From positions 1,332 to 65,331 of the forward strand of contig JAOHKG010000001.1 in NCBI GenBank assembly GCA_028101095.1: DNA of 64,000 nt. Reading direction: 5' to 3'. The notes under the pieces are model-generated. The model searched no databases. It saw only the letters and a list, made by a program, of their open reading frames with translations, and was not told the DNA's origin. Shown here piece by piece: positions 13,913 to 54,291 of this stretch (position 1 is the first letter of the stretch; every line of letters begins with the position of its first letter). A program made the translations under genes and the position numbers. This DNA is from Fidelibacterota bacterium (lineage in GTDB: Bacteria > Fidelibacterota > Marinisomatia > Marinisomatales > UBA1611).

Positions 13913-13913
13913 A

Positions 13914-14666: not shown

Positions 14667-14668
14667 TT

Positions 14669-15013: not shown

Positions 15014-15073
15014 AGAACTGAATTACATCGAATATTCTGATAAATAGATTTTTACTTTAAAGATTAAAAAATA

Positions 15074-15307
15074 ATGAAAGATAGTATTACAGGCTCATCT
15101 GAAGTAATTAATTTAGAGAAACTTGATAAAGAAGCTTACAGTACTCTTGCTGATTGGGCTAAGTCTGCACCGCGCATTATTAAGCAATTAGAAGCGGAAG
15201 GTAAAAAAGACGAGCTCAAAAAGTTTAAACTTCAGATTAAACTTGTTGTAAATAAACTTCAAGATATCAAACAAATTTTAAAAAAAAACTCAGATGTAAT
15301 AGGTTGA
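15074..15307 (+). CDS. hypothetical small helical/charged protein
   Basis: The 77-aa ORF is Lys/Glu-rich. I recognise no family. Confidence 0.4.
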   Translation: MKDSITGSSEVINLEKLDKEAYSTLADWAKSAPRIIKQLEAEGKKDELKKFKLQIKLVVNKLQDIKQILKKNSDVIG

Positions 15308-36456: not shown

Positions 36457-38067
36457 ATGAAAATAGCAGTATGTCAAATTAACTCAACGGTTGGAGGTTG
36501 TAATAGAAATACTGAGAATATATTAAAGCACTACAAGACCTCAATTGGGTTAAAAGTTGATATTGTTGTTTTTCCAGAACTTTCAATCATTGGTTATCCA
36601 CCATTAGATCTTCTATTTGAGAGTGAGATCATTGATCTGAATATTTTATGTCTAAATCAAATTGCAACGGAGTCTTCTGTTCCAATAATCGTAGGTTATG
36701 TAAGAAAAGACTCAAATAATTTTCTGTATAATTCTGCAGCAGTTTGTTTTGATGGTAAAATTCAGGCTTCATATGATAAAGTATTATTGCCTAAATATGA
36801 TGTTTTTGACGAAACCAGATACTTCAAGAGTGGTAAAAATACTAAAGTAGTAGAAATACCGGTTGAAAATTCAGTCCGCAAGATTGGTTTACAAATTTGT
36901 GAAGATCTTTGGGATGATAATTACGATTACAAAGTAACAGAAGAGCAATGGAAGCATGGCGCTGAATTCTTCATAAATATATCTTCTTCACCTTTTTCTG
37001 TAGGAAGAATAAATGAAAGAATCAAAGCTATCGAACAAAAGGTGAAAAAGTTTAACAAACCGTTTATTTATTGTAATACAGTCGGAGGCCAAGATGAATT
37101 AATATTCGATGGATCCTCTTTAGCTTTTAATAGAGATGGTCAAATAATTGCAGCTGCGAGACCATTTATTGAGGAAACAATTATTGTAGACTATTCAAAA
37201 AATATTAAGAAAATTTCATTAAAAAAATATTCTGATGAAGAACAATTATATGAAGCCCTATGTTTAGGAGTAAAAGATTATTTTCTAAAAACTGGTCATG
37301 ATGATGCTCTTTTGGGCTTGTCTGGTGGCATTGATAGTGCATTAGTGTCCTGTATTGCAGCGGATGCCTTGGGATCCTCGAAAGTTCATACAATTTCACT
37401 ACCATCAAAATATTCATCCGATCATAGTATTGATGATGCTGAGCTCCTTGCACGGAACCTAAACATCGATCATAAAGTTATTAAAATTAATGAAGTAGTT
37501 AATGTTATGGAGGATACTTTAGACCCCTACTTTAATAATACAAAAAGTGGTATAGCCGAAGAAAATATCCAAGCTAGAGTTAGAGGAAATATCTTAATGG
37601 CTTTATCAAATAAATTCAATTGGTTATTATTATCTACTGGAAATAAAACTGAAATGGCACTTGGATATTGTACTCTATACGGAGATATGTGTGGAGGGCT
37701 ATCGGTTATATCTGATGTAAATAAATTGAGCGTCTATAGATTAGCCAATTGGATAAACAAAGTATCTCCAAATCGAATACCCCAAAATATAATTTCAAAA
37801 CCTCCTTCAGCAGAACTTGCACCTGGTCAAGTTGACCCATTTGATTATAATATTGTAAGTCCAATGGTAGATGCTTTTGTAGAAAATCAAAGTTCGATAA
37901 CAGATGTAATAAAAACTGATGCAGATAAAACACTGTCTAAGTTTATTTATAATAGAATTAAAATGATGGAATACAAACGAAGGCAATCACCTATAGGTTT
38001 TAGAGTCTCTAATAAAGCATTTGGATTGGGTCGCAGAGTCCCAATTGTAAACCATTTTGAGGGCTAA
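36457..38067 (+). CDS. nadE: glutamine-dependent NAD+ synthetase
   Basis: The 536-aa ORF has an N-terminal CN-hydrolase domain (VVFPELSIIGYPP, LQICEDLW). The C-terminal NAD synthetase domain has the PP-loop GLSGGIDSAL. Confidence 0.9.
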   Translation: MKIAVCQINSTVGGCNRNTENILKHYKTSIGLKVDIVVFPELSIIGYPPLDLLFESEIIDLNILCLNQIATESSVPIIVGYVRKDSNNFLYNSAAVCFDGKIQASYDKVLLPKYDVFDETRYFKSGKNTKVVEIPVENSVRKIGLQICEDLWDDNYDYKVTEEQWKHGAEFFINISSSPFSVGRINERIKAIEQKVKKFNKPFIYCNTVGGQDELIFDGSSLAFNRDGQIIAAARPFIEETIIVDYSKNIKKISLKKYSDEEQLYEALCLGVKDYFLKTGHDDALLGLSGGIDSALVSCIAADALGSSKVHTISLPSKYSSDHSIDDAELLARNLNIDHKVIKINEVVNVMEDTLDPYFNNTKSGIAEENIQARVRGNILMALSNKFNWLLLSTGNKTEMALGYCTLYGDMCGGLSVISDVNKLSVYRLANWINKVSPNRIPQNIISKPPSAELAPGQVDPFDYNIVSPMVDAFVENQSSITDVIKTDADKTLSKFIYNRIKMMEYKRRQSPIGFRVSNKAFGLGRRVPIVNHFEG

Positions 38068-38070
38068 AAT

Positions 38071-38502
38071 ATGATACTAAAGATATTAGTTTTATTTTTT
38101 CTTACAAATCTTTCTGCTGGAGAAACTACACCAGCAGATTTTTGGTCCAGTTATAATAAAATTGAAAAAATTGCTTTTGTTAATGGTTCGTTTGGTGCGT
38201 TTGCTAAAATAAAATCTCATCATAAATCAGAAGTGAAAAAACAATACATGCATGATGATAATTGGAGAGAACCATATTTTATTGAAAGATTTTATGGCAT
38301 TATTGATGAATATATTGCTAGCGAGGTTGGCTATAATTTAGAAATAATAGTAATGCACCTAGATGCTTTTTATACTAATTCAGATAATATTAAAATTCCT
38401 ATACTAGAAGCTTTAAGGATAGTCGCACTTATTCAAGATGGTGAGAAAAAAACAGCAAATACAAGGCTCCTAAAATCTCAACAGAAATACAGAACATATT
38501 AA
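38071..38502 (+). CDS. hypothetical secreted protein
   Basis: The 143-aa ORF has a signal-like N-terminus. I recognise no family. Confidence 0.45.
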   Translation: MILKILVLFFLTNLSAGETTPADFWSSYNKIEKIAFVNGSFGAFAKIKSHHKSEVKKQYMHDDNWREPYFIERFYGIIDEYIASEVGYNLEIIVMHLDAFYTNSDNIKIPILEALRIVALIQDGEKKTANTRLLKSQQKYRTY

Positions 38503-38557
38503 ACTATCCTTCAATTATTCTAAGTTTAATTTATATTTATAACTTGTAAGAAAAACA

Positions 38558-40360
38558 ATGAAAACAGATAAAATCAGAAATTTTTGTATAATAGCTCACA
38601 TAGATCACGGAAAGTCAACTTTAGCCGATAGGTTATTAGAGGAAACAAAAACTCTCTCAAAAAAAGAAATGAAAAATCAAGTATTAGACAGTATGGATTT
38701 AGAAAGAGAGAGAGGGATTACAATTAAAAGTCATCCAATAAGAATGGAGTACGAGCATGTAAACGGAGAGAAATACATACTTAATTTAATCGATACTCCT
38801 GGACACGTTGATTTTAGCTACGAAGTATCAAGATCTTTAGCTGCTTGTGAAGGTGCTCTCTTGTTAGTTGATGCGGCACAGGGAGTTGAAGCACAAACTG
38901 TTTCAAATACATATCTAGCCATAGAAAATGACCTAACAATAATTCCTATTATAAATAAAGTTGATTTACCATCTGCAATGGTTGAAGAAGTAAAAGATCA
39001 AATAGTAGAACTCCTTGGTTGTGATCAAGAGGATATTATTGGTGCAAGTGCCAAAAGTGGTTTAGGAATAGACAAGATCTTCACCTCTATTATTAACCGT
39101 ATTGAACCACCAAGTGATAATTCTAAAAATAATACTAGAGCCTTGATATTTGATTCAATGTATGATAACTACAAAGGTGCAATCCCATATGTAAGAGTTT
39201 TTGATGGAGTTTTAAAACCTGGAATGACCATACAGTTTTTTTCTCATGGTCGAGAATATGATATTACCGAAACTGGTCATTTCGTCTTAGAAAAGGTGAA
39301 AACAGAAGAATTAAAATCCGGTGAAGTCGGCTATATTGTTGCAAGCATCAGAGATATGAGCCACATTGAACCCGGGGATACTATAACCACTAAAGAGGAT
39401 GCCGCTACCAAACGTTTACCTGGATATAAAAAAATAAAACCTATGGTATTTTCAGGTTTATATCCTGCTGACGCAGATGATTATGATCAACTTCGTCAAG
39501 CATTAGAAAAACTTAAATTAAATGATGCTTCATTGGACTTTACGCCTGAAACAAGTGAGGCCTTGGGCTTTGGTTTTAGATGTGGCTTTTTAGGTCTTCT
39601 TCATATGGAGATAATTCAAGAAAGATTAGAACGTGAATTCAATTTAGACCTAGTTACAACTACACCAAACGTAATTTATCAGGTTAAAACAAGAGAAGAA
39701 GTTTTATTAACTGTTGATACACCCGCAAAAATGCCAGGTTCAGGAGATATCGATAATATAATGGAGCCAATTGTAAGAGCTGAAATAATTACACCCAAAA
39801 AGTATATTGGAAGTATTATGACTCTTTGCCAGAAAAAAAGAGGTATATATAAAACAACTCAATATTTATCAAAAGATAAAGCGCAGTTACTTTATGATCT
39901 ACCTCTGGGTGAAATTATTTTCGATTTTTATGATAAGTTAAAATCTATATCAAGTGGTTATGCTTCATTTGACTATGAGTTAAAAGAATTTAAAAAAGCA
40001 AGTCTTCAAAAATTGGATATATTAATCCATGGAGAGTCGGTAGATGCTTTATCTGTTATTTGTCATTCTGATGATGCTTATCATAGAGGAGTAGCTCTTT
40101 GTTCTAAGTTAAAGGAATTAATTCCAAGGCAAATGTTTGAGGTAGCGATACAAGCTTCTCTTAATAATAGAATAATTGCACGATCGACAGTAAAAGCTTT
40201 GAAAAAAAATGTTACAGCTAAATGTTATGGTGGAGATATATCGCGGAAACGAAAACTATGGGAGAAACAAAAAAAAGGTAAAAAGCGTATGAAAATGATT
40301 GGTAGAGTTGAAGTTCCCCAAGAAGCACTTTTAGCTGTTCTTCAGATGGATAACGATTGA
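38558..40360 (+). CDS. lepA: translation elongation factor 4 (LepA)
   Basis: The 600-aa ORF has the GTPase motifs [17 protein letters not shown] and NKVD, and a LepA-specific C-terminal domain. Confidence 0.95.
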
Positions 40361-41076
40361 GTTTTGTAACAAAATACTGGAACTACACTAAATCACCAAT
40401 ATATAGCTTATTATTCACATTACCTTTTTTTCTAATTTATGAAATAGGTATTTTTTTTACAACAAATGATGATATCTTAGTGCTTCGCAATGGTGCAGAT
40501 GCGTTAATGCGCCAAATATTATCAATTTTTGGTTTAGTAGGATTATATTGGCTGGGATTATTATTTTTGCTAATTATAATTATTACTTTATATGCACAAC
40601 GAAATTTTTGGTCAAATACAGAAATTATTGGAAATTATTTTTTCTTTATGATGTTTGAAAGTTTATTTTGGTCCGGAGTTTTATTCTTATTTATGTCAAA
40701 TATTTATCTTTTTCTAATGAATCCTAATGGGCAATATCTAATCCAACAAATAACTTTAGCTATAGGCGCGGGTATTTATGAGGAATTTCTATTTAGAGTT
40801 ATTTTAATTTCAGTAATTGCTTCACTATTTTCATTAATATTTAAATGGAATAAAAAGACTAATTATATCTTAGGAATGTTTATGTCAGCTGGTATTTTTT
40901 CAGTTTTTCACTTTATTGGTGACTATGGTGATTACTTCTCATTTAGAATTTTCATGGTTCGTTTTCTAGCGGGTATTTTTTTAGGCATGTTATTTATCCT
41001 GAGAGGTTTTGGAATTACAGCGTGGTCACACTCAATTTATGATTTAATTGTTTTAACTAAAATAACTACAGAATGA
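40357..41076 (+). CDS. CPBP (CAAX) family intramembrane glutamic endopeptidase
   Basis: The 239-aa polytopic protein has motif 1 ([10 protein letters not shown]), motif 2 (FHFIGD) and motif 3 (WSHSIYD). Confidence 0.7.
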
Positions 41077-41147
41077 TTCTTTTTTTTTTATAAATAACGT
41101 AATTTTATTCAATTCAACAAAACTGAAAAATAAGGAAGGTTTTAATA

Positions 41148-41993
41148 ATGTACCCTGTAATATTTGATTTTGGAATAATAAATATTTTTGGTTTTAAATT
41201 TCAACTTGCTATATATTCATTTGGTTTGATGCTAGTTGTTGCATTTTATACTTGTTATTTTCTTCTAAATCATGATTTTAAAAGATTTGGATATGAAGAA
41301 AAGTTAGCATCAGATATTATATTTTGGTCTGCCTTAGGTGGTATCTTAGGTGCTAAGGTTTACTATATCCTTGAAAACTTAGATGATGTCCTCGCATCAA
41401 ACGATCCATTTGGAATGATTTTTAGCGGTGCAGGATTAGTGTTTATAGGTGGACTAATTGGTGCTGTTACTGCTGTATCAGTCGTTATTAGAAAAAATAA
41501 CTTACCTTGGTTTGTTCTCGCTGATATTTTAGCTCCTCTTATAATTCTTGGTTACGCAATAGGAAGAATTGGATGTTTTCTAGTTGGAGATGATTATGGA
41601 ATCCCTTCAAAACTACCTTGGGCGATTGCTTTCCCTGATGGACTTCCTCCTACAACATATGAGTCTTTTCAATATAGATACCCATGGATTGATATTTCTG
41701 GTTTTGAACCGGGTTTACTTTCTGTCCATCCCACACAAATATATGAATTTTTGATTTGTTTATTATTATTTTTCTATTTGTGGAACAAAAGAAAAAATAT
41801 TACGGTTCATGGCTCTTTATTTTTCACTTATTTAATTTGTGCTGGAACTGAACGTTTTCTAATAGAATTCTTAAGAACTAACGAAAAGTATTTATTCGAT
41901 ATCTTTTCTGGAGCACAAGTGTTATCTCTAACAATGGTCTTCATAGGCTCATATTTTTTATTCAAACCAATGCAAAATGAAACTGCTAAATAA
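41148..41993 (+). CDS. lgt: prolipoprotein diacylglyceryl transferase
   Basis: The 281-aa membrane protein carries GGLIGA, GRIGCFLVGDDYG and HPTQIYE. Confidence 0.9.
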   Translation: MYPVIFDFGIINIFGFKFQLAIYSFGLMLVVAFYTCYFLLNHDFKRFGYEEKLASDIIFWSALGGILGAKVYYILENLDDVLASNDPFGMIFSGAGLVFIGGLIGAVTAVSVVIRKNNLPWFVLADILAPLIILGYAIGRIGCFLVGDDYGIPSKLPWAIAFPDGLPPTTYESFQYRYPWIDISGFEPGLLSVHPTQIYEFLICLLLFFYLWNKRKNITVHGSLFFTYLICAGTERFLIEFLRTNEKYLFDIFSGAQVLSLTMVFIGSYFLFKPMQNETAK

Positions 41994-42822
41994 ATTCAGA
42001 AAAATATTAAAAATAATTTTTATGACTAGTTTGGTTTTATCTCAAAATAAACTTAATATTATTGAACATTTAGATTTTTCTGAAAACTTAAAACAGAACG
42101 AGATACAACCGAATATTTTAAGTAGTTCATACTATGATAGCTATCTAATGCTTGATTTTTATAAACAAGTTATAATTAAAATTGATTTATCAGGAGAAAC
42201 CACTTTTTCAAGTGCTATAGGTGATAATTCATTTCAATATGGTGATTTTGTATGGCTTGATGTTATGCCTGATGGAATAAAAGTTTTAGATAAATTAGAT
42301 AATAAAATTCTTCACCTTGATCATAACCTAAATAAAATACAAACGATAAGCTTAAGTAAAGATATTTACCCGGTTAAAGCATCCTCTTTTCCTTGGGGTG
42401 ATATCTTATTATATTCAAAAACTTTTAATTCCATCTACATTTTTATAAACGGAAAATTAGATGAGAAAGCTTTTATCAATTTTTATAAAGAGTTTAATTC
42501 AAAAATTTGTGTAGAAGACATAGAAATTAATCAAGATGGTGAAATAGGGTTGCTACATTGTAGTGGTGAGCTTACTTTGTTTTCTCAAAACGGTAAAAAG
42601 AAAATCACCTACCCAAATTTATTAAAAGATGCAAAATTTTTAGTTTCGATTAACTTTGAATGGCTTTATTTCGATAATAATGGAAATGGTCGTTTTGTGG
42701 AAGATAAATTGATTAATGAGTTGATAGTTCCAGCAAATCCTATTATTGATGTAATATCCAATAATGGATTTTTATCCTTTCTTACAAAAGATCATATTCT
42801 GACGATGGATGTTCAACAATAA
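41977..42822 (+). CDS. hypothetical secreted protein (first gene of an uncharacterised envelope cluster)
   Basis: The 281-aa ORF has a signal-like N-terminus and beta-rich composition. Its start overlaps the lgt 3' end by 17 nt. Confidence 0.5.
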   Translation: MKLLNKFRKILKIIFMTSLVLSQNKLNIIEHLDFSENLKQNEIQPNILSSSYYDSYLMLDFYKQVIIKIDLSGETTFSSAIGDNSFQYGDFVWLDVMPDGIKVLDKLDNKILHLDHNLNKIQTISLSKDIYPVKASSFPWGDILLYSKTFNSIYIFINGKLDEKAFINFYKEFNSKICVEDIEINQDGEIGLLHCSGELTLFSQNGKKKITYPNLLKDAKFLVSINFEWLYFDNNGNGRFVEDKLINELIVPANPIIDVISNNGFLSFLTKDHILTMDVQQ

Positions 42823-45800
42823 ATGTCTAAATATTAGTTTTTGCTGTATAGTTTTTTTTAAATTATCAGGACAAACTATATCAAGTAAGGTAGATACTTT
42901 CAAGTTAAATGACACTTTATCTACAATTTCACTTTCAAAAAATTTTTTGATAGAATCATCACTGACAACTACTTTAAATGGGAAATTAGAAGAAGTAACT
43001 GTAATTAATATTAAAAATTCAATTATATCCCTTCCTAGTGTAAAAAAAAATGATGAAGTAATTATAAAGTATCAATATTTAAATAATGGTTTACCAATTA
43101 AAATTGGTCCTAAGTGGAAAGATCTACCTAAAATAAATAATTCTGATAGTTTAGTTGTAGAAAAATCATTGTTGAAAAAAAATAAAATAAAAGAAGATCA
43201 AGATCTCTTTTCATCGGGGTCTGTTTTTCGGAAAATTAATTTTTCCCCCTTTGGTTCATCTGACTTAACAGGGGGACTTCAAATGCAAATTAATGGAAAA
43301 TTAGGGAATGATATAATACTTAGTGGAGTTCTTTCAGACCAAGATATACCTATTCAACCTGAAGGAGTGACAAAAGAGCTGGAAGAAATTGATAAAGTAT
43401 TCATAGCAATACGCCATCCAATATTTACTTTGGATGCAGGAGATATAGTTTATAAAGATTCGATTCCTTTGATAGATATTGAAAAAAAATTAACAGGTCT
43501 TCAAAATTCATTTTCATCTAATAAAATCTCTGCTTCTTCAGTTTATGGTGGATCTAAAGGTACTTTCCATTCTAAAGAAATTTATGGTAGAGATGGAGAT
43601 CAAGGTCCATATCAATTAAAAAGTAAAACAGGTAATAAAGAAATAATTATTCTTTCTGGAACAGAAAAAATATGGTTAGATGGTAAGAAATTGGTAAGAG
43701 GGGAGATGTTTGATTATACCATAAATTATTCATCAGGGAGAGTCTTTTTTACACCTAAAAATTTGATTCACAATGATATGAGAATATTATTTGAATATCA
43801 ATATTCAGACTTCAGTTATGAAAAAAGTTTTATTGGAGGTAGTTTCCAGAAAAAAGGTATAAGAAATAAAAGTTTAATAGGTTTTGGTGTTTATAAAGAG
43901 TCTGATATCTATAAAAAAATAATTTTAGAGGATCAATTAAATGAATCCTTATCTGAAGATGATTCTGGAGTCATTAAAAGAAGCACGGTTATAAAAGATG
44001 AAAATGGAGATTACTTTCTGCAAGACTCAATATATGTCTTTGATTATATGAAAAGTGATAATTTATTACCGAGGTATTCCATTGTTTTTAATTATAATCC
44101 AAAGGGTAACTATAAAAAAAGGATATCAAATAAGGGAAAAGTTTTTTATGAATACATTACAGAGATGGATAGAAATACAAACACGGACTATTATAGCCCT
44201 TTTGATGTTTCTTATGCACCTAGAAATATTCAGTTTGGTTATCTAAATGGGAAATACTCCATAAATAAATATTTTCATATAAATTCACAACTAAAGTCAT
44301 CGACAAAAAACCTTAATCTCCTGAAAAGTGGTTTGAAAAAAACAGGCCAAGCTTATAATCTTGAAATGAGAATTGATTCAATTGAAGTTCTGGATAATAT
44401 TTTAAAATTTAAATTTAATCAACAAATAAGAGATGATAATTACTATTCTCTTGGAAGAGAAAATGATGTAAACAAATCTAAATTATGGAATTTAGATTCC
44501 TTAATTAATCAAGGTGTGAAAGAACAAAATTTTATATCATCTCTTGAAAATTCTTCAATTGGAAAAATAACACTAGACCTATCTAGCCTTGAAAGTAAGT
44601 CTTCTTATTTATCTAGATTTAAAATAAGTTCATATTTTAACCAAAAAAAAATTGAAGGTTCATATATAGACTATTTTAAAATCAATTCTAATAAAGTTCA
44701 TTTTTACAGGTTTAATAGTTATTTACAAATAAAAAGTAAATATTTGACTCCATATATTTCATTTATAAAAGAGTTAGAAGCTCTAAACGAAAAGTATTTT
44801 AGAGTTGAAGGCGGATTTAAAATATTATCAAATAAATGGGAATTTGAATCTGGAATTGAAAAAAGAGTGGATGAAAAATATTACAATAATACTTTTGAGA
44901 ATAGTTCGAATGATTTAATTGGAATGATTGATTATAAATATAAACCTGTTAATGGATGGAGTAATCATCTTCTGTATAAAAAAAGAATAAAAGATGTAGC
45001 TGGTGGTATTGATTATAACTATTCATTATCTGATATAAATATAGTATACAAAAAACCTGATCAATTAATTAACTTTAAAATACAGGGGCGTAAAGAAGAA
45101 ACTTTTACCGAAGCACGAGCAATAATATATGATTCAGTAGGGGTAGGGTTTGGAAATTTTCGCTACGATAAAAATTTCAATATTTTTATACCAGATCAAA
45201 ATGGATCTTTTATCTCATATAATATTTACACCGGTGAGAAAAAACAAAGCACTCTATTTCAAGGAATGCAAGATCTAAGAATAAATTTTCAAAATATAAA
45301 AGAAATATCTGATTTCTCTTTTCATATTAATTCAAGACAAAATATTTCAGGAAATCTTAATAATCTTAAACAGTTATATAAATATAATATTGATAATAAG
45401 AAAATTTATTTTTCAACATTTCAGTTAAGGTCTGAATTAATATATTCTAAAAAGAATAATTTTTTAATCTGGAATGAAGTTAACTATAGTTTCTTTGGTG
45501 AGGACCCAAGAGGAAATGAATTGAATAAAAAGATATCAAACGGAATTACATTTAATAGAAAAATATACAAAATGCTTTCGGTTAAAAATGAATTTTTATT
45601 TTCTCATCAATTAATAGAGACGAATATAAGCACACAACTTGAAAGAAAATTGAACAGCTGGTGGGAAGATTTTGAATTGCAATTTAGGGTGAATAGAAGT
45701 TTAGATTTTGATTTGAGTCTCTTTGGAGGTTTTGATGATGGAAATATTAAAACTGAAAAAATCAAAGTATTATCACATGGATTATCGCTGAAAGCTAAAT

Positions 45801-46051
45801 ATCTCTTTGATAGAATGGGTAGCATTAATTTGCAGTTTAAATTCATAAATACAGATGAAAAAAGTAATAGAACTTATATCCCACCAGAGTTTGGACAGGG
45901 ATATGCCTTAGGTAAAAGTTTAATATTGCAATCAAGATTCCAGTATTTTTTCACAAATTCTATTTCATCAATTATAACAATTTATGGTATAGATGATAGT
46001 CGATATAGTCGTTCTTTAAATTTTCAAGGCGAGTTACGTGCTTATTTTTAG
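42809..46051 (+). CDS. large hypothetical outer-membrane protein (putative beta-barrel)
   Basis: The 1080-aa ORF has a signal-like N-terminus and alternating aromatic/polar beta-strand patterning throughout. The C-terminus ends ...GELRAYF, with a terminal Phe like an OMP beta-signal. It overlaps both neighbouring genes by 14 nt. Confidence 0.6.
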   Translation: MFNNKCLNISFCCIVFFKLSGQTISSKVDTFKLNDTLSTISLSKNFLIESSLTTTLNGKLEEVTVINIKNSIISLPSVKKNDEVIIKYQYLNNGLPIKIGPKWKDLPKINNSDSLVVEKSLLKKNKIKEDQDLFSSGSVFRKINFSPFGSSDLTGGLQMQINGKLGNDIILSGVLSDQDIPIQPEGVTKELEEIDKVFIAIRHPIFTLDAGDIVYKDSIPLIDIEKKLTGLQNSFSSNKISASSVYGGSKGTFHSKEIYGRDGDQGPYQLKSKTGNKEIIILSGTEKIWLDGKKLVRGEMFDYTINYSSGRVFFTPKNLIHNDMRILFEYQYSDFSYEKSFIGGSFQKKGIRNKSLIGFGVYKESDIYKKIILEDQLNESLSEDDSGVIKRSTVIKDENGDYFLQDSIYVFDYMKSDNLLPRYSIVFNYNPKGNYKKRISNKGKVFYEYITEMDRNTNTDYYSPFDVSYAPRNIQFGYLNGKYSINKYFHINSQLKSSTKNLNLLKSGLKKTGQAYNLEMRIDSIEVLDNILKFKFNQQIRDDNYYSLGRENDVNKSKLWNLDSLINQGVKEQNFISSLENSSIGKITLDLSSLESKSSYLSRFKISSYFNQKKIEGSYIDYFKINSNKVHFYRFNSYLQIKSKYLTPYISFIKELEALNEKYFRVEGGFKILSNKWEFESGIEKRVDEKYYNNTFENSSNDLIGMIDYKYKPVNGWSNHLLYKKRIKDVAGGIDYNYSLSDINIVYKKPDQLINFKIQGRKEETFTEARAIIYDSVGVGFGNFRYDKNFNIFIPDQNGSFISYNIYTGEKKQSTLFQGMQDLRINFQNIKEISDFSFHINSRQNISGNLNNLKQLYKYNIDNKKIYFSTFQLRSELIYSKKNNFLIWNEVNYSFFGEDPRGNELNKKISNGITFNRKIYKMLSVKNEFLFSHQLIETNISTQLERKLNSWWEDFELQFRVNRSLDFDLSLFGGFDDGNIKTEKIKVLSHGLSLKAKYLFDRMGSINLQFKFINTDEKSNRTYIPPEFGQGYALGKSLILQSRFQYFFTNSISSIITIYGIDDSRYSRSLNFQGELRAYF

Positions 46052-47366
46052 ATTTTTATTATTGATTGGGTTTATTTTATGTCAAGAAGGAAAAATAATA
46101 ATTAAATCCTTAGAAAAACAGTTAATAAAAGATTCCTTAAGAATTCTTTATAATGATTTAAATAATTATGAATCATATTATGAATTAGAGAGTTTTACTT
46201 ATAATCCCAATGCTTCTTACTACAATATTAAAAATAAATCAAAATCTATTGATTCCTTGATAGTAAAGATTAAATCAATAAAAAATAAATCTATTATTGA
46301 TCAAATTATTTCCCCATATCTAAATCTTCAAATTAATGATGATTTTAATGATATTGGAATGAATGTAATATCGAGATATTATTTTTTCACCGAACCTCCT
46401 TACCATGATTTGAAATTGATAGACTCATCTAAAGTTGGTTTGGAAATTTATTTGAATTCTATTTTTGAAAATTATGCTTCCGCAATTATTGGTCTGAGTG
46501 AAAATTCTAATAAATGGGACCTTACGGGTGAATTTACTGTTCATATTGAAAATTATCTTAACCAGGCTGAATTTTTGGATGTTTACTGGAGGAAAACGGA
46601 CTCTCTTTCTCACTTATTTAAGTTTGATGTTTTATTTCCACATCCTTTGGGAAATAAAATTGGTGTAAATTGGAAATATAATTTTGAATCTATAAATAAG
46701 CTATACACCAAAGTAGAAAATAGATATATTTTAAAAACTTTCTCTAATTTATTTGATAATATGGAATTAGGTTATATTAAAGGAGAGACAAAGCCTACTT
46801 TAGTAGGTAAAAATAATAATTACGTTAAAAACTCATTTAGAGGTTTTTTATTTACTTCAGCTAAAGATTCGAGAAATAATAGGTTTTTACCAACTAAGGG
46901 TTCGTTTTTTAAAAATGAAATTGATATAGGCCTTCAAAATCAATCTACTTTTGTTCAAATTATAAATAACTTGAGCATGCATCGTATATTGAAAAATAAA
47001 ATTTTATTAAATGTGAAATACTTATTCAAAGGTTTATTTGATTCAAATGGTAATATACCTAAAAGCCTTTATCATAATTATGGAGGTGCATCTACCCTTA
47101 GAGGATTTAAAGAAAATCAATTTTCAAGTTCTTCTTTTCAGATTTTGACATTAGAACCAGGTATTAGTATAAACTCCACCTCTCAGATAAGGTTATTTGT
47201 TGATTTTGCATCTAAAACAGTTGATTTTTTTGATAAATATCAAGCTGGTTATGGGTTTGGCTTTTATCAATCAAATAAAAATTCTTTAATCCATATTGAA
47301 TATGCTATGAATAATTTGAGTTCAAATAATGCTAAAATTCATTTTAAATTCGTCTCAAAATTTTGA
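46038..47366 (+). CDS. Omp85 (BamA/TamA-like surface antigen) family outer-membrane protein
   Basis: The 442-aa ORF carries YGGASTLRGFKENQF (the Omp85 loop-6 RGF-type motif). The C-terminus ends HFKFVSKF with a terminal Phe. Any POTRA region at the N-terminus is at most short. Confidence 0.6.
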   Translation: MLIFRFLLLIGFILCQEGKIIIKSLEKQLIKDSLRILYNDLNNYESYYELESFTYNPNASYYNIKNKSKSIDSLIVKIKSIKNKSIIDQIISPYLNLQINDDFNDIGMNVISRYYFFTEPPYHDLKLIDSSKVGLEIYLNSIFENYASAIIGLSENSNKWDLTGEFTVHIENYLNQAEFLDVYWRKTDSLSHLFKFDVLFPHPLGNKIGVNWKYNFESINKLYTKVENRYILKTFSNLFDNMELGYIKGETKPTLVGKNNNYVKNSFRGFLFTSAKDSRNNRFLPTKGSFFKNEIDIGLQNQSTFVQIINNLSMHRILKNKILLNVKYLFKGLFDSNGNIPKSLYHNYGGASTLRGFKENQFSSSSFQILTLEPGISINSTSQIRLFVDFASKTVDFFDKYQAGYGFGFYQSNKNSLIHIEYAMNNLSSNNAKIHFKFVSKF

Positions 47367-47385
47367 AATTTTCAATTTATATATA

Positions 47386-48402
47386 ATGAATAAAACCATA
47401 ACATTTTTTTTTATCGGTATAATTTTTTTCTCTATCAATTGTGATACAAAGAGAGAAGCTCTTGGTGCAGATAATGAAATACGTGTTATTTGCTCTAATA
47501 TTGACGAAAAAATAATAAAGTCTTATTTAAGTCAAATATTTTCAGACACACTTTTTTCTCCTGAACCTGAACCTTATTATCAATTAAAATTTTCTACTCC
47601 AGAGACTTATAACCAATTAAAAAAGCAATCTAAAGTTATTGTCGCAGCAGTAAATAGAGATAGAGGGAATCCTGGATTAAAATTAGTAGAGCGTATTTTA
47701 CCTAATGAAAACCTTAAAAAAACACTAACTGAAGACCCAGTGATTCTTATGAGAAATGTCTATGCTAAGAATCAACTATTCATGGTAATAAATGCTATTT
47801 CAGAAACAATATTAAATGGAACAATACAGTCAAAAAAAAATGCTTTTAGAAAAGAATACAATGATCAATTTATTTCTAGACAAAACAACTATCTTGGTGA
47901 AAGAGATAGAAACATAAGCCTTGAAGATTCAATTTTTAACGATCACGGTTGGGAAATGAATATTCCATGGGGTTGGATAAGTATAAAAAACATAAAAGAC
48001 TCGAATTTTGTATGGTTAGGAAAAGAAATGCCATTTCAATGGATAGGAGTAAATTGGATAAATGGCGATTACGTATCAACTATGGATAAGTTAGAGGTAG
48101 GGAGATATATATGGGATTGGCCAAAAAAATTTTACGGTAATATCCAATTTAATGATTATAAATTCAACTTAGATGAAACTTCATTTAATGGTTCCACAGC
48201 ATGGAGAAGTAAAGGTGTTTGGGAGACTATTGATAAGTTAGATCCAAAAGGAGGCCCTTTTTGTTCATATTTATTCTATGATAATATTACAGATAGAACC
48301 TTTTACATAAATTATCTCATACATCACCCTGGGAATGATAAATCCATCTATATGAGGAAATTAGATCAAGTAGTTAGATCAATAAATACGAACATAAAAT
48401 GA
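47386..48402 (+). CDS. hypothetical lipoprotein (possibly DUF4837-like, unverified)
   Basis: ATG 47386 gives MNKTITFFFIGIIFFSINC (lipobox-like). The ORF-track start at 47329 overlaps the upstream gene and lacks signal features. Confidence 0.5.
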   Translation: MNKTITFFFIGIIFFSINCDTKREALGADNEIRVICSNIDEKIIKSYLSQIFSDTLFSPEPEPYYQLKFSTPETYNQLKKQSKVIVAAVNRDRGNPGLKLVERILPNENLKKTLTEDPVILMRNVYAKNQLFMVINAISETILNGTIQSKKNAFRKEYNDQFISRQNNYLGERDRNISLEDSIFNDHGWEMNIPWGWISIKNIKDSNFVWLGKEMPFQWIGVNWINGDYVSTMDKLEVGRYIWDWPKKFYGNIQFNDYKFNLDETSFNGSTAWRSKGVWETIDKLDPKGGPFCSYLFYDNITDRTFYINYLIHHPGNDKSIYMRKLDQVVRSINTNIK

Positions 48403-49262
48403 AAATTCTTATAACCGGAGCATATGGCCAGCTTGGATATTCTTTAAGTAAATTTCGTAGCACTAAAGATAAAGTCTACAGAACAGGAGTGAAAATTCCT
48501 TTAGGTGAAAAAGGTCTTCGGCTAAATATTATCGATAATATTATGCTTAAAGACATAATTTTATCACTTTCTCCAGACATTATTATAAATCTAGCAGCGA
48601 TAACTAATGTGGATTTTTGTGAATCAAATCCGAAAATTGCAAAAGAGATTAATACTAATGGGGTTCAAAATTTAGTTGATGTTTTTCCAGGGAAAATTAT
48701 TCATCTATCTACTGATTATGTATTTGATGGTTTAAATGGACCGTATAAAGAAGAAGATCAAATAAATCCAATTTCAGTTTATGGTAAGACGAAATATGAC
48801 GCTGAAAAAATAGTCTTAGAAAAAGAAAATAATTTAGTACTTAGAGCAAACGTATTATATGATGGCTTGAAATATAATAATGCGAGTTTTCTAAATTGGG
48901 TTGTAAATAATTTAAAAAATAAAAATTCAATTAAAGTTGTTGATGACCAGTATAATAATCCGACTTGGACAGAATCTATAGCTAAAGTTCTAATGCTTTG
49001 TTTAAATAATAATATAAGTGGTTTGTATCATTGGGGAGATGAAGACTATCTAAGTCGATATGATTTTGCAATTAAAATAGCAAAGGCATATGGCTTAGAA
49101 AGTAGTTTGATTAAAAAGATTCCAACTTCTGAATTAAATCAATTAGCACCTAGACCTTTGAATGGGGGATTAGATCAAAATAAATTAAAAAATATTTTAA
49201 AAATAATTCCACCTAAAATTAATGACTGTTTAAATGCAATATTAATCAAGGAAGCAGAATGA
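48399..49262 (+). CDS. rfbD: dTDP-4-dehydrorhamnose reductase-like NAD(P)-dependent reductase
   Basis: The 287-aa ORF carries ILITGAYGQLG, STDYVFDG and YGKTKYDAE (YxxxK). Its start overlaps the upstream stop (ATGA). Confidence 0.8.
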   Translation: MKILITGAYGQLGYSLSKFRSTKDKVYRTGVKIPLGEKGLRLNIIDNIMLKDIILSLSPDIIINLAAITNVDFCESNPKIAKEINTNGVQNLVDVFPGKIIHLSTDYVFDGLNGPYKEEDQINPISVYGKTKYDAEKIVLEKENNLVLRANVLYDGLKYNNASFLNWVVNNLKNKNSIKVVDDQYNNPTWTESIAKVLMLCLNNNISGLYHWGDEDYLSRYDFAIKIAKAYGLESSLIKKIPTSELNQLAPRPLNGGLDQNKLKNILKIIPPKINDCLNAILIKEAE

Positions 49263-49972
49263 AGAATTTGATTATAACCCCTACTTATAATGAAGTCAAA
49301 AATATTGAAACATTGATAGAGCAGATAAATAAAAATACTCAAAACTGCGATATATTAGTTATTGATGACAATTCACCTGATGAAACATCATTAAAAGTTG
49401 AAAGTTTACAAAAACAGTATAAAAATATATTCCTTGAAAAGCGACCTGGAAAAGCTGGCTTAGGTACAGCATATATTCATGGTTTTAAATGGGCCATTAA
49501 AAATAATTATGATTCGGTTGTTCAAATGGATGCTGATTTATCTCATGATCCAAAAGAAATATCTAACCTTTTAACGGAACTTGGTACAAATGATTTAGTA
49601 ATTGGAAGTAGGTATGTTCAAGGCGTAAGCGTAGTAAATTGGCCGATTAGAAGATTAATGCTGAGCTATGGAGCAAACGTATACTCAAGAATAATTACAG
49701 GTATGCCTATAAATGATGGTACGGGAGGTTTTAAAGCTTGGAAAACTGATCTTTTAAGGAAAATAAATTTTAAAAATATTAGATCTCAAGGATATTCTTT
49801 TCAAATTGAAATGAATTTTAAGGCTTGGTTATTAAAAGCAAAAATAAAAGAATTTCCAATAATATTTGTAGATAGAACAATTGGTGAATCAAAAATGTCA
49901 AAAGCTATAATGTTCGAAGCTATTTGGGTTGTTTGGAGATTGCGTTTATTGAAAATTTTTAAAGGTTTATAG
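49259..49972 (+). CDS. polyprenol-phosphate glycosyltransferase (GT2, Dpm1-like)
   Basis: The 237-aa ORF carries ITPTYNE, VIDDNSPD, MDADLSHDP and GSRY. Confidence 0.85.
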   Translation: MKNLIITPTYNEVKNIETLIEQINKNTQNCDILVIDDNSPDETSLKVESLQKQYKNIFLEKRPGKAGLGTAYIHGFKWAIKNNYDSVVQMDADLSHDPKEISNLLTELGTNDLVIGSRYVQGVSVVNWPIRRLMLSYGANVYSRIITGMPINDGTGGFKAWKTDLLRKINFKNIRSQGYSFQIEMNFKAWLLKAKIKEFPIIFVDRTIGESKMSKAIMFEAIWVVWRLRLLKIFKGL

Positions 49973-49974
49973 AC

Positions 49975-50841
49975 TTGATTAAAATTTCATTTTGTATTGT
50001 CAATTTAAATGCCAAAAAAGTTCTAAAAGAGTGTTTGAATTCCATTAAGAATTCGATTAAAGATGAGGAATATGAGATCATTATCACGGATAATAATTCA
50101 ACAGACGGATCTCAAAAAATGATAAATACTTTTAAAAAAAAAATCTGTATAATCCAAAATAATAGAAATGAAGGTTATACATCAGCTTTAAATAAAGGAA
50201 TAATCAAAAGTACAGGTAAATACATTATTGTACTAAATCCGGATACAATTTTAGAAAATATGTCAATAACTAATTTAATATCTTCTTTGAAAAAAAATAG
50301 TGCTATTGGAATTGTGGGTCCCAAAGTTATAAATGAAGATGGCACTTTTCAAAAATCTTGCAGAAGAGGATTAGCTAAGCCAAAAGCAGTGTTTTCTTAT
50401 TTTCTTGGATTGTCCAGTAAGTTTTCAAATAATGAAAATTTTACCGGATATCACCTAAATCATCTTGATGAAAATAAAACTAATGAGGTCTTTGGTGTCT
50501 CTGGTTCTTGTATGGCTATAAGAAGAGAAGTAGTTAACGATATTGGATACTTTGATGAAAGATATTTCGCATATCAAGAAGATTCAGATTATTGTTTAAT
50601 GGCAATCAATAAAGGATGGAAAGTACTATATAATCCTAATGTTAAAGTGCTTCACAAAGGGGGGAGGGGTGGCTCTAATACTGTCCCAATGAAAGCAATT
50701 TTTGAATGGCATAGATCTTATTACAAATATTATTTTAAGCACTTTTCAAAAGACTATTCATTTGTATTCAATATATTTTACTCATTAGTTATGCTCCTAA
50801 AATTACTTTTCAGTCAAATATTTTTTATAATTAAATCTTGA
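49975..50841 (+). CDS. family 2 glycosyltransferase
   Basis: The 288-aa ORF has a TTG start, with ITDNNSTDGS and LNPDT (DxD-like) motifs. The C-terminus is hydrophobic. Confidence 0.8.
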   Translation: MIKISFCIVNLNAKKVLKECLNSIKNSIKDEEYEIIITDNNSTDGSQKMINTFKKKICIIQNNRNEGYTSALNKGIIKSTGKYIIVLNPDTILENMSITNLISSLKKNSAIGIVGPKVINEDGTFQKSCRRGLAKPKAVFSYFLGLSSKFSNNENFTGYHLNHLDENKTNEVFGVSGSCMAIRREVVNDIGYFDERYFAYQEDSDYCLMAINKGWKVLYNPNVKVLHKGGRGGSNTVPMKAIFEWHRSYYKYYFKHFSKDYSFVFNIFYSLVMLLKLLFSQIFFIIKS

Positions 50842-50842
50842 G

Positions 50843-51892
50843 ATGAAACTTATAGAGAACCTAGATAGTGGAATATTAATTCTTGTTGCAAGTATATTAA
50901 TCTCCACTATTTTATCTTGGATAAGTTTATTTATTGCACCCAAAATAAATTTAATGGATGATCCAAGATCTGCCGATCACAAAAAACATAAAAAGAAAAT
51001 ACCCATTACAGGTGGTTTAATCCTCTTCAGTACGGTTTTTGTACTTATCATACTCACAAACTTATGGGATAACTCTAATATATGGGCAATCCTTACTTCC
51101 AGTTCAATTATTTTTTTCTTAGGCCTTTTAGACGATTACATTCAATTAAAACCTTTACAAAAACTTTTCGGACAATTTCTTGGTGCTTTGGTCTTGATTT
51201 TAAATGGTGTTCAGATAAATATATTTAATTCGCCTGAATTTATTAATTCATCTGAAACTATTATAAATAATTGGCTAAATATAGGCTTTACTATTTTTTG
51301 GATGTTAGCTCTAGCTAATGCATTCAATTTTATAGACAGTATAGATGGATTAGTGGTTGGGCTTAGTGGTGTTTCAACTTTATTTTTTTTTATTATATCA
51401 TTAACAACAGGACAAGAAGAACTCTTTTTATTTTGTTCGATTCTACTTGGAGTTTGCATTGGGCTTTATTTCTTCAACTCACATCCAGCAAAGTTATTTC
51501 TAGGTGATTCAGGTGCACAAACTTTAGGATTTATTTTAGCATCAATTGCTATTATTTATAATCCATTAAGAGGAGGGCAATCCTCTACATGGTTTGTACC
51601 AATTCTAATATTCTACATGCCTCTTTTTGACCTTATACTTGTAGTCTTATCAAGATTTAAAAGAAATAAAAAAATTTATAAAGCATCTAGAGATCATACA
51701 TACCATAGATTATCAGATAAAGGTGTTTCTATTCACCATTCTGTATTAATTATTCATGGAGTGTCACTTGTGATGAGTATGATTGGTTATTTATGTTTAA
51801 ATTTGTCAACTATCAATGCTAACTTAATTTTCTCCAGTTCAATATTGATCGGTATAGCAGCATTTATTAAACTTGATAAGAACTATTTATAA
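50843..51892 (+). CDS. MraY/WecA-family polyprenol-phosphate sugar-1-phosphate transferase (GT4)
   Basis: The 349-aa polytopic protein carries LLDDY, NAFNFIDSIDGL and LGDSGAQTLGF. Confidence 0.8.
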   Translation: MKLIENLDSGILILVASILISTILSWISLFIAPKINLMDDPRSADHKKHKKKIPITGGLILFSTVFVLIILTNLWDNSNIWAILTSSSIIFFLGLLDDYIQLKPLQKLFGQFLGALVLILNGVQINIFNSPEFINSSETIINNWLNIGFTIFWMLALANAFNFIDSIDGLVVGLSGVSTLFFFIISLTTGQEELFLFCSILLGVCIGLYFFNSHPAKLFLGDSGAQTLGFILASIAIIYNPLRGGQSSTWFVPILIFYMPLFDLILVVLSRFKRNKKIYKASRDHTYHRLSDKGVSIHHSVLIIHGVSLVMSMIGYLCLNLSTINANLIFSSSILIGIAAFIKLDKNYL

Positions 51893-51894
51893 TT

Positions 51895-52848
51895 ATGATT
51901 CAAAAATATTATTTAGAATTTGAAAAACCATTTAAATCGCTCGATGAAGAGATTTTAGAGCTTGAAAGTAATCATAACCCAGACCAAAAATTATTAACTA
52001 AGCAATATAATAAAAGATCTGAGTTAATAAAAAAAATATATTCAAGACTTAGTAGATGGGAAAGAGTCCAATTAGCAAGGCATCCAAATCGTCCATATTC
52101 AAAAGATTATATAGAGTTTTTCTCACCAGATTTCATTGAATTACATGGAGACAGATACTTTAGAGATGATCCAGCTGTTGTTTCTGGTATAGGACACTTC
52201 GATGATTTTAAAGTTGCATGGATTGGTCAACAAAAAGGTAGAAACACAAAAGAAAACTTATATCGGAATTTTGGGATGATGAGACCTGAAGGTTATAGAA
52301 AAGCAATAAGGGTAATGAAGATAGCTGAAAAGTTTAATCTACCAATCATCTCTCTTTTGGATACTATTGGAGCTTATCCTGGTATTGGTGCAGAGGAGAG
52401 AGGGCAAGGCGAAGCAATAGCTAAAAATTTAATTACAATGTCAGGAATAGAAGTACCAATAATATCAGTTGTTATTGGGGAAGGAGCAAGTGGAGGAGCT
52501 CTAGGAATTGGGGTCTGTGATAGAATGTTAATGATGGAAAATACATGGTATTCTGTAATCAGTCCTGAGGGTTGCGCATCAATTCTTTTTCGAGATGCGA
52601 AAAGAGCTGAAGATGCAGCAGAGGCATTAAAGCCAACACCAAAAGATTTGTTAGAGATAGGTATATGTGATAGGATTATTGAAGAGCCAAATGGAGGAGC
52701 ACATCGTGATTTTGAAGCATCATGTAATTCCTTGAAAAATGTTTTGCTTGATGAGATAAAAAAGCTCTCCTCTGTTGATAAAAAAGATTTTCTCCAAAAT
52801 AGAATAGAAAAATATGCTGCACTAGGTTTCTTTGAAGAAATTTCCTAG
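51895..52848 (+). CDS. accA: acetyl-CoA carboxylase carboxyltransferase subunit alpha
   Basis: The 317-aa ORF carries ARHPNRPY, DTIGAYPGIGAEERGQGEAIA and VIGEGASGGALG. Confidence 0.95.
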   Translation: MIQKYYLEFEKPFKSLDEEILELESNHNPDQKLLTKQYNKRSELIKKIYSRLSRWERVQLARHPNRPYSKDYIEFFSPDFIELHGDRYFRDDPAVVSGIGHFDDFKVAWIGQQKGRNTKENLYRNFGMMRPEGYRKAIRVMKIAEKFNLPIISLLDTIGAYPGIGAEERGQGEAIAKNLITMSGIEVPIISVVIGEGASGGALGIGVCDRMLMMENTWYSVISPEGCASILFRDAKRAEDAAEALKPTPKDLLEIGICDRIIEEPNGGAHRDFEASCNSLKNVLLDEIKKLSSVDKKDFLQNRIEKYAALGFFEEIS

Positions 52849-53255
52849 TGCAGCATAAATTCCAAACAAAAGTTTATTATAAAGATATTGACCAAATGGG
52901 AGTTGTCTACTACTCACGATATTTTGAATATTTTGAGCAAGGAAGAACTGAGCTTCTAAATTCAATCGGACTCAATGTTTCAGAAATAGAAAACCAAGGT
53001 ATCTTTTTGCCCGTTGTCCTAGCCCATTGTGAATATAATAAGGGAGCAAGGTTTGAAGATAAAATCACAATAATATCAAAGATTAATGAACTTCCAAAGT
53101 CTAGATTAAAAATTAATTATTTAATAACAAAATATGATCCCATTGAAAAAATTGCTTTTGGCTTTACTGAGCACGCATTTATGAAAAAAAATGGTAAACC
53201 GACAAGGCCACCTAAAATAATTTTTGATTCAATTAAACACAATCTGGAAGCATGA
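52848..53255 (+). CDS. acyl-CoA thioesterase (4HBT/YbgC hotdog family)
   Basis: The 135-aa ORF has a GTG start overlapping the accA stop. VYYKDIDQMGVVYYSRYFEYFEQGRTE carries the catalytic Asp region. Confidence 0.8.
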   Translation: MQHKFQTKVYYKDIDQMGVVYYSRYFEYFEQGRTELLNSIGLNVSEIENQGIFLPVVLAHCEYNKGARFEDKITIISKINELPKSRLKINYLITKYDPIEKIAFGFTEHAFMKKNGKPTRPPKIIFDSIKHNLEA

Positions 53256-54283: not shown

Positions 54284-54291
54284 CTAGAAAG

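Follow-up and report, generated by a model that had tools for sequence, protein, structure and literature searches.

To our knowledge, very large single-chain β-barrels are rare, and the characterized ones, LptD, the ushers, SprA and SlpA, have each defined a major machine of the cell envelope. The largest barrel known is said to be SprA, which has 36 strands (bioRxiv 10.64898/2026.03.07.710327), and partner proteins are reported to control the SprA pore (PMC10994853). SlpA/SDBC is a 30-strand barrel, and three unnamed barrels of 38 strands are predicted in D. radiodurans (PMC9388160). For Omp85 proteins, the loop-6 (V/L)RG(Y/F) and the FxDxG lid-lock motifs have been described (PMC11358297). 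Here we report on a locus found in a 64,000-nucleotide stretch of a Fidelibacterota bacterium (assembly GCA_028101095.1, contig JAOHKG010000001.1, positions 1,332 to 65,331; hereafter the window), in which a giant predicted outer-membrane β-barrel of an unnamed family is encoded by an open reading frame (ORF2) located between those for a diverged NHL-type β-propeller (ORF1) and an N-terminally reduced, BamA-like Omp85 protein (ORF3). The close relatives of the window proteins are labeled Marinimicrobia, Neomarinimicrobiota or Fidelibacterota.

The three genes are on the forward strand, as are all the neighbors described with them: ORF1 at positions 41977-42822 (281 amino acids), ORF2 at 42809-46051 (1080 amino acids) and ORF3 at 46038-47366 (442 amino acids), the last with a putative GTG start that is the mechanically first one in the frame. 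They are preceded by lgt (41148-41993; PF01790, E 4e-53) and followed by ORF4 (47386-48402; 338 amino acids). As described in the initial annotation, and as read again from the coordinates and junctions, the successive overlaps of lgt/ORF1, ORF1/ORF2 and ORF2/ORF3 are 17, 14 and 14 nucleotides, ORF3 and ORF4 are separated by 19 nucleotides, and the stop codon of ORF4 overlaps the start codon of an rmlD-like gene as ATGA (48399-48402). We propose tentatively, with a confidence that stays a little below even, that ORF1, ORF2 and ORF3 constitute a three-protein outer-membrane module of the Fibrobacteres-Chlorobi-Bacteroidetes (FCB) bacteria, which would consist of a very wide barrel, a periplasmic NHL propeller that partners it, and a protein of the BamA family by which it is inserted or docked.

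The order of the NHL, barrel and Omp85 genes is kept in at least three phyla, Marinimicrobia, KSB1 and Calditrichota, and in several unclassified genomes. Among 84 loci compared, the ORF1-type gene is found at position -1 of ORF2 in 30 and the ORF3-type gene at position +1 in 29, and the genes of the trio overlap or abut within a few nucleotides in the window, in other Marinimicrobia, in KSB1 and in Calditrichota. The synteny inside Marinimicrobia (lepA, Rce1-like, in some cases Zn-ribbon, lgt, NHL, barrel, Omp85, DUF4837, rmlD, glycosyltransferase family 2 [GT2] and further genes to accA) by itself says little. Outside Marinimicrobia, the flanks of the trio are wholly different, with rnpA-yidC on one side and spoU and a peptidase M1 gene on the other. 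The genes for DUF4837, lgt, rmlD and GT2 adjoin the trio in Marinimicrobia only, and the trios of KSB1 and Calditrichota are without all of them; lgt is present in 12 of the 84 loci, all of the Marinimicrobia type. Because only the NHL, barrel and Omp85 genes stay together outside Marinimicrobia, the genes for DUF4837, lgt and glycan synthesis are not regarded as parts of the module. Consequently, the proposal of the initial annotation that ORF1 to ORF4 form a dedicated machine, whose gene order should be looked for across Marinimicrobia and other FCB genomes, is supported in part: the conserved order is that of a three-gene core and not of a four-gene unit, and the tie that it drew to lgt and the glycan module is given up.

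The association was also examined from the side of the Omp85 protein, by inspecting the gene upstream of the 80 closest metagenomic relatives of a KSB1 ORF3. Of the top 20, upstream sequence is available for 17, and ORF2 is directly upstream in every one of them; in the full set of 80, it is so in 24. The majority of the more distant relatives (33-37% identity), which are of the same length and have the same POTRA architecture, have no ORF2 upstream.

Two genes were rejected as conserved neighbors, those for NlpC/P60 and TonB_C proteins, as they are found in too few loci (about five for NlpC/P60). In Crocinitomicaceae and in loci of the KSB1 type, the gene for the NlpC/P60 peptidoglycan hydrolase is upstream of the barrel locus and in divergent orientation (locus L086, 7848-8345, and locus L085, 9403-9876, both on the reverse strand).

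ORF2 belongs to a large family. A word-index search returned 251 relatives, none of which has a Pfam domain, and a profile search against 1.84 billion cluster representatives (50% identity) returned 3206, including 1999 at E values of 1e-30 or lower. Most are 1000-1200 amino acids long and align with ORF2 from end to end, and such full-length relatives number in the hundreds. ORF1 to ORF4 are genuine genes rather than chance reading frames. Scanning GTDB with a single genome for each species, by a 12-sequence alignment with the motif PIQPEG(N/V)T as the search pattern, confirmed the family in at least 587 stretches. Their labels include Marinimicrobia, Calditrichota, KSB1, Melioribacter, Ignavibacterium, Chlorobiota-labeled genomes and Bacteroidota; Kryptoniota and Crocinitomicaceae are also found among the named clusters. 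More than 30 relatives carry a name in their sources, which in every case is "hypothetical protein." Neither ORF2, nor 35 members of its family, nor seven relatives from other phyla gave a meaningful match to Pfam or NCBIfam. Searches of PDB sequences with ORF2, with the family profile at E values up to 10 and with a profile of residues 128-350 were also without a match, the sole exception being a non-significant PAAR-like stretch (E 1.6). A literature search found nothing on the ORF2 family, DUF4837, an NHL-barrel-Omp85 operon or outer-membrane barrels of Marinimicrobia.

An AlphaFold2 model of ORF2, computed from a 35-sequence alignment, is all-β with a predicted local distance difference test score (pLDDT) of 82.6 and a predicted template-modeling (TM) score of 0.69. 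From the N-terminus, it consists of a signal-peptide helix, a small β-sandwich (residues 24-91, positions 42878-43081, delimited by DSSP and pLDDT), a low-confidence or disordered linker (residues 98-129) and then about 39-40 long strands, which are interrupted by two inserts of short strands at residues 260-324 and 368-472. The 50 best matches listed for the model by Foldseek in the PDB are exclusively outer-membrane barrels. SprA is at the top (E 5e-8), with query-normalized TM-scores of 0.22-0.30 that are the highest of all targets; SlpA, TonB-dependent receptors, maltoporin, MtrB and LptD rank after it. Coevolution was analyzed by mean-field direct coupling analysis of 452 sequences (effective number about 276), and the strands that are adjacent by DSSP covary far above background (median z 2.1; Mann-Whitney p 1e-17), which confirms that neighboring strands pair as hairpins. 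A membrane pattern of alternating hydrophobic and polar residues is found in at least 27 of the 29 strands at residues 473-1079, while the eleven N-terminal strands are mixed. Thus, amphipathicity and the C-terminal motif described below are as found in outer-membrane barrels, and the model supports a meander of strands. Together, they lead us to predict that ORF2 is a very large single-chain outer-membrane β-barrel of roughly 30-40 strands of membrane length.

Conservation in ORF2 is strongest in the following parts. The most conserved motif of the family is PIQPEG(N/V)T at residues 181-188 (43349-43372), in which Q183, P184, G186 and T188 are invariant in 26 sequences from several phyla, and which is in a loop modeled with low confidence (pLDDT below 50 at residues 179-187). 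The inserted small-strand domain at residues 260-324 (43586-43780) carries QGPYxL, GTEKVWxDG and RGENxDYxIDYSxGEIxFTP, with invariant columns at Q265, G266, P267, Y268, L270, G284, E286, G292, R297, G298, D302, Y307 and F314, and is flanked by the coevolving residue pair 252-334. The C-terminus, GELRAYF (46028-46048), is a β-signal-like end conserved as GExRA(Y/F)F, in which E1075, R1077 and A1078 vary little or not at all. The terminal Phe, which had been pointed out for both ORF2 and ORF3 (...HFKFVSKF), is nearly invariant across the ORF2 family (F1080). In Bacteroidota members, a DYxIDYxxGxIxF/L motif is found twice, once in the N-terminal domain (as DYxIDYxxGxIxL) and once in the insert, where it corresponds to residues 302-314 of the window protein (43712-43750), and one KSB1 member weakly matches TIGR02217 (E 3e-4), a family of phage distal tail proteins. 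The repeated motif and this match suggest a small repeated β-sandwich module.

The earlier statement that the 1080-residue protein could not be matched to LptD, TamB, SprA or TonB-dependent receptors stands after the profile and structure searches it called for, none of which assigns ORF2 to a well-characterized family. SprA was rejected in the absence of a match to SprA_N (PF14349), to an NCBIfam SprA model or to a PDB sequence; the structural match, although top-ranked, has TM-scores of 0.13-0.30. LptD was rejected because there is no PF04453 match and the LptD chains rank 18 and lower in Foldseek, with query-normalized TM-scores of 0.11-0.13. A TamB/AsmA-like protein was rejected given that no DUF490 or AsmA match is found and that a conserved, C-terminal aromatic β-signal is present; TamB/AsmA-like chains are also absent among the 50 best Foldseek matches listed. 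No family member matches PF07715 or PF00593, for which reason a TonB-dependent receptor was rejected, and the structural similarity to these receptors is generic (query-normalized TM-scores of 0.12-0.20). Finally, ORF2 is not related to the Omp85 family of ORF3 (hhalign probability 2.5%).

With an iterative profile built from the window ORF1, the gene that occupies position -1 relative to ORF2 was retrieved from 30 loci. Its relatives in KSB1 and Calditrichota match the NHL family PF01436 (E 1e-34, 1e-25, 1e-26, 1e-11 and 6e-9) and also DUF5128, "6-bladed beta-propeller." Through these relatives, ORF1 is identified at the sequence level as a diverged six-bladed β-propeller of NHL repeats. With signal peptides assigned by eye and from the N-terminal helices of AlphaFold models, ORF1 has a signal peptide and no lipobox Cys. 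The periplasmic protein of the initial annotation is thereby refined to an NHL propeller. In KSB1-type loci, a conserved 126-amino-acid ORF is found ahead of the NHL gene.

ORF3 is assigned to the Omp85 superfamily by the profile matches of its relatives and by its motifs. PF01103 is found in seven close relatives and in one that is 36% identical, and orthologues from the Marinimicrobia locus L001, KSB1 and Calditrichota match it with E values of 4e-7 to 1e-22. The orthologues in KSB1 and Calditrichota are 580-630 amino acids long and match POTRA (E 8e-27) and Omp85 (E 5e-22); two of the four have three stretches matched by POTRA. Against the PDB, the best matches of the ORF3 family profile are BamA structures (E 3e-36), and the window protein itself has a weak, sub-threshold match to an NCBIfam Omp85 model (NF047779). 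At residues 349-357, GGASTLRGF (47082-47108) includes the loop-6 (V/L)RG(Y/F) motif, as had been recognized from STLRGF, and G349, G350, R355 and G356 do not vary among 23 relatives. In the FxDxG motif of strand 13, all 23 sequences have D389 and nearly all have F387; the window protein has LFVDFA, in which the last Gly is replaced by Ala. Marinimicrobia ORF3 proteins are without the N-terminal third of the alignment, in agreement with the initial description of a POTRA-poor Omp85 homologue. Because orthologues in other phyla have POTRA domains, the POTRA-less form of Marinimicrobia is a secondary reduction of a BamA-like protein. An AlphaFold2 model of ORF3 from an 8-sequence alignment was unusable (pLDDT 33).

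The more specific Omp85 identities were considered and rejected for ORF3. Its relatives score 145-193 bits on TIGR03303 (BamA) against a cut-off of 297, with E values down to 9e-57, and align to this model only from about position 147-273, so that the first POTRA domains are unmatched. With scores below the cut-off, three POTRA stretches at most and no match of the window protein, ORF3 is not BamA proper; canonical BamA is also absent from the window. It is neither TamA, as relatives reach 36-48 bits on NF047950 against a cut-off of 625, nor TamL, as they reach 16-24 bits on NF052279 against a cut-off of 400, and DUF490/TamB proteins are absent in all ORF2 and ORF3 neighborhoods examined. A TpsB/ShlB protein was rejected because the PF03865 matches (E 6e-4 to 3e-3) are below cut-off and the neighbors are a barrel and a propeller, with no TpsA. 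The initial annotation ascribed signal-like or lipobox N-termini to all four proteins. The lipobox-like Cys is found in ORF4 alone (FSINC); Cys15 of ORF3 is not conserved among relatives, and ORF3 is therefore probably not a lipoprotein of the TamL type.

In the proposed module, ORF2 would most likely be a very wide outer-membrane channel whose small N-terminal domain lies in the periplasm on a flexible linker, while the conserved loop and the insert region may bind partners or substrates. ORF1 would be a soluble periplasmic propeller and a dedicated partner of ORF2, which may function as an adaptor, a chaperone or a plug. ORF3 would most likely insert the giant barrel or dock to it, as BamA and TamA do with difficult barrels. 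The three proteins would then act jointly, with ORF3 acting on ORF2 and ORF2 being an open channel. A more far-reaching proposal, which we regard as doubtful, is that the trio is an unrecognized translocon of FCB bacteria: a barrel of up to about 38-40 strands, at least as wide as SprA, that is gated by the propeller, is built or partnered by a BamA-like Omp85 of its own and passes large cargo (proteins, lipoproteins or polymers) by a route apart from the numbered secretion systems.

Several results weigh against such a module. The window ORF1 and ORF3 are too diverged to have a Pfam match on their own. The Foldseek TM-scores of ORF2 are low for every known barrel, at most 0.35 by either normalization and at most 0.30 when normalized by the query, and the match is therefore to a fold class and not to a family. 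Coevolution analysis gave no signal between the first and last strands and found no partner for the last strand, for which reason the number of strands in the barrel can only be placed at about 28-40. In Ignavibacteriota, Melioribacter and Bacteroidota, no ORF1 or ORF3 is found within 8 kb of ORF2. Conversely, ORF3-like genes of Ignavibacteriota and of one Calditrichaceae locus are far from ORF2 and in a housekeeping context, so that the Omp85 protein may be a general factor.

The neighbors of ORF2 in these other genomes include a NUDIX gene and, in Ignavibacteriota, also genes for PfkB, IF-2B-like and LolC/E-like permease proteins. In Melioribacter and Ignavibacteriota, ORF2 is directly preceded by two to five tandem genes for LolC/E-like permeases (MacB_PCD plus FtsX, about 410 amino acids; L027, 5275-7739); found before ORF2 in 14 Ignavibacteriota loci, they are a second, independent neighbor from the lipoprotein pathway besides lgt in Marinimicrobia. 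The ORF3-like genes in housekeeping contexts belong to Ignavibacteriota and to a Bacteroidota-labeled genome, and are named BamA or "BamA/TamA family" in their sources. In Ignavibacteriota (loci L116-L166; for instance, L149, 3638-7704, and L159, 879-9394), the 588-amino-acid protein is encoded in a block with genes for Rce1-like, Zn-ribbon, CdsA, MiaB-like, GWxTD and PfkB proteins before it and for UbiA, RNase HII and UPF0102 proteins after it. The large neighbors are CarB, CstA and leucine-rich repeat proteins, with no TamB among them. With cdsA upstream and rnhB downstream, this block recalls the bamA region of E. coli. Rce1-like and Zn-ribbon genes are found ahead of the trio in Marinimicrobia as well, and the shared context may be a trace of an ancestral order from which the barrel gene split off. 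The occurrence of ORF3-like genes away from ORF2 indicates that this Omp85 subfamily extends across the FCB bacteria and is not confined to the barrel locus; Ignavibacteriota nonetheless possess both ORF2 and the ORF3-like Omp85, which co-occur though unlinked.

These findings bear directly on the main rival explanation, in which the genes are neighbors without a shared mechanism, ORF3 being a general insertase of the BamA/TamA family, possibly the main BamA, and ORF2 an independent porin or structural protein. The conserved housekeeping block of Ignavibacteriota, where the Omp85 gene is named BamA or BamA/TamA family and ORF2 is missing, and the occurrence of ORF2 without partners in Ignavibacteriota and Bacteroidota are what would be expected from it. 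However, the overlapping or near-abutting frames persist in at least three phyla despite fully different flanking genes, and the ORF3 relatives are under the equivalog cut-off for BamA, which they match only from about position 150. In addition, ORF3 proteins of Marinimicrobia have 22-36% identity to the window copy and ORF2 proteins 28-49% (for relatives beyond about 80% identity), which indicates similar rates of change. Evolution about as fast as that of ORF2 and the loss of recognizable POTRA domains are not expected of an essential, sole BamA. Although an arrangement of mere neighbors is to be taken seriously, we judge it unlikely.

In a further explanation, ORF2 is a compact, SprA-like secretion translocon, gated by the propeller as SprA is by Plug and with ORF3 as its outer-membrane partner. 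SprA chains are the top Foldseek matches, the strand count is near the 36 of SprA, the FCB-restricted distribution parallels that of type 9 secretion (T9SS), and control of the SprA pore by partner proteins is reported (PMC10994853). The SprA match is generic, however, as TonB-dependent receptors, maltoporin and LptD score almost equally. Moreover, ORF2 has no match to SprA_N, to SprA models of NCBIfam or to PDB sequences, is less than half as long as SprA and has no T9SS genes nearby. As ORF2-bearing Crocinitomicaceae encode T9SS cargo (Por_Secre_tail), ORF2 is also no replacement of SprA there. Taken together, a SprA-like translocon is improbable. It is quite improbable, too, that ORF2 is an abundant structural barrel whose N-terminal domain anchors the outer membrane to the cell wall or periplasm, like SlpA of Deinococcus. 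SlpA/SDBC chains are at Foldseek ranks 3, 11 and 14, SlpA has a similar succession of N-terminal domain, flexible linker and large barrel, and an NlpC/P60 gene is divergently upstream in KSB1 and Crocinitomicaceae; yet profile searches detected no SLH, OmpA_C or other peptidoglycan-binding domain, the NlpC/P60 neighbor is found in only about five loci, and the conserved propeller and Omp85 protein are left unexplained.

Least probable of all is a machine of four genes with a functional tie to lgt and to the module for lipid-linked glycan, for instance one that exports surface lipoproteins or glycan, which is suggested by the lgt/ORF1 overlap of 17 nucleotides, the DUF4837 lipoprotein and glycan genes downstream, the LolC/E-like permeases preceding ORF2 in 14 Ignavibacteriota loci and a Borrelia LptD homologue, also a large barrel, that is reported to flip surface lipoproteins (bioRxiv 10.1101/2022.12.21.521298), but against which stand the confinement of the lgt, DUF4837, rmlD and GT2 adjacency to Marinimicrobia, in which the whole lepA-accA region is syntenic, the absence of these genes from the KSB1 and Calditrichota trios, the RNase R gene that interrupts the link to DUF4837 in L003, and the best Bacteroidota matches, which are from Crocinitomicaceae and uncultured genomes with no surface-lipoprotein-rich model organism among them.

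ORF4 is a DUF4837 protein (PF16125, E 1e-24, aligned over profile positions 2-294 of 295 at 87.5 bits, the cut-off being 25) with the lipobox-like FSINC, and is a Marinimicrobia-specific neighbor outside the conserved core. Its start at 47386 was chosen as it carries a signal peptide; the longest frame, from 47329, encodes 357 amino acids. At the junction between the ORF3-type Omp85 and DUF4837 genes, an RNase R gene is inserted in L003 of Marinimicrobia (13074-15191), and gaps of about 2 kb are found at the same place in L013, L016 and L055. Downstream of ORF4, the lipid-linked glycan module at 48399-51892 comprises, by Pfam matches, the rmlD-like reductase, two GT2 genes and a GT4 gene (MraY/WecA-type). 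Within it, positions 49975-51892 encode a separate GT2 (288 amino acids) and the GT4 MraY/WecA-type transferase (349 amino acids), while several other Marinimicrobia have instead a single 682-amino-acid fusion of GT2, CoA_binding_3 and Bac_transf (for instance, L001, 14945-16993), so that the type of the initiating phosphoglycosyl transferase has been swapped between lineages. Upstream, merely 71 nucleotides (41077-41147) separate the Rce1-like gene from lgt, an interval that is filled by a gene for a 273-amino-acid Zn-ribbon protein in other Marinimicrobia (L001, 5550-6371). An ORF of about 140 amino acids, which starts with a signal-like segment, does not match Pfam and is located between the NAD synthase gene and lepA (38071-38502, forward strand), is conserved even in distant Marinimicrobia (L001, 2590-3012). 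Elsewhere in the window, 9603-12581 on the reverse strand encode an unusual 992-amino-acid fusion of a response-regulator receiver with PPDK_N (phosphoenolpyruvate-utilizing, ATP-binding). The window is AT-rich, with a G+C content of 26-33%, and a scan of 38000-54500 for promoters and terminators gave counts no higher than chance.

The novelty of the locus thus is in an unnamed, widespread family that is found in a conserved, uncharacterized arrangement with members of known families. The ORF2 family has thousands of sequence clusters in abundant marine and sediment phyla, including SAR406/Marinimicrobia, without a domain model, a name or a paper, and it merits a Pfam or NCBIfam model, as the BamA-like subfamily with three POTRA domains merits a name of its own. 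If the three proteins cooperate, they may represent a new way of assembling barrels that are too large for the standard β-barrel assembly machinery (BAM), or a new route of transport across the outer membrane. Cultured Melioribacter and Ignavibacterium offer genes in which these possibilities can be tested, one being that for WP_437356807.1 of Melioribacter strain Ez-97.

Compared with BAM and with TAM, the module for translocation and assembly, the trio shares the Omp85 barrel of ORF3 with its loop-6 LRG(Y/F) and FxDxG motifs, the POTRA domains of the ORF3 relatives and, loosely, a β-propeller accessory, as BamB of E. coli may be likened to ORF1. It differs in that ORF1 is a six-bladed NHL propeller with no lipid anchor, BamB being a lipoprotein with eight blades, in that the ORF3 relatives have three detectable POTRA domains at most and the window copy none, and in that no TamB/DUF490 gene is nearby; the BAM and TAM operons also have no counterpart to the adjoining giant barrel. 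TamL of Bacteroidota and Chlorobi is likewise an Omp85 paralogue that is specific to FCB bacteria and has three POTRA domains (PMC4104836; PMC12045153), but the ORF3 relatives are without a conserved lipobox Cys and are not encoded beside tamB. The noNterm Omp85 proteins of Leptospira and Cytophagales resemble the window ORF3, which appears to be POTRA-less; ORF3, however, is not in the DUF5982 noNterm group (PMC11358297), and its orthologues have POTRA domains. ORF2 shares with SlpA, and with the barrels of 38 strands predicted in D. radiodurans, a very large single-chain barrel with N-terminal periplasmic parts; it has no SLH domain, no coiled coil and no sequence match. The SprA/Sov proteins of T9SS are longer (1988-2290 residues in PDB chains, against 1080 for ORF2), are not similar in sequence or profile, and belong to a system whose genes are not found near ORF2, but like ORF2 they are very large single-chain barrels confined to FCB bacteria, and among known structures it is SprA that ORF2 matches best, if only weakly.

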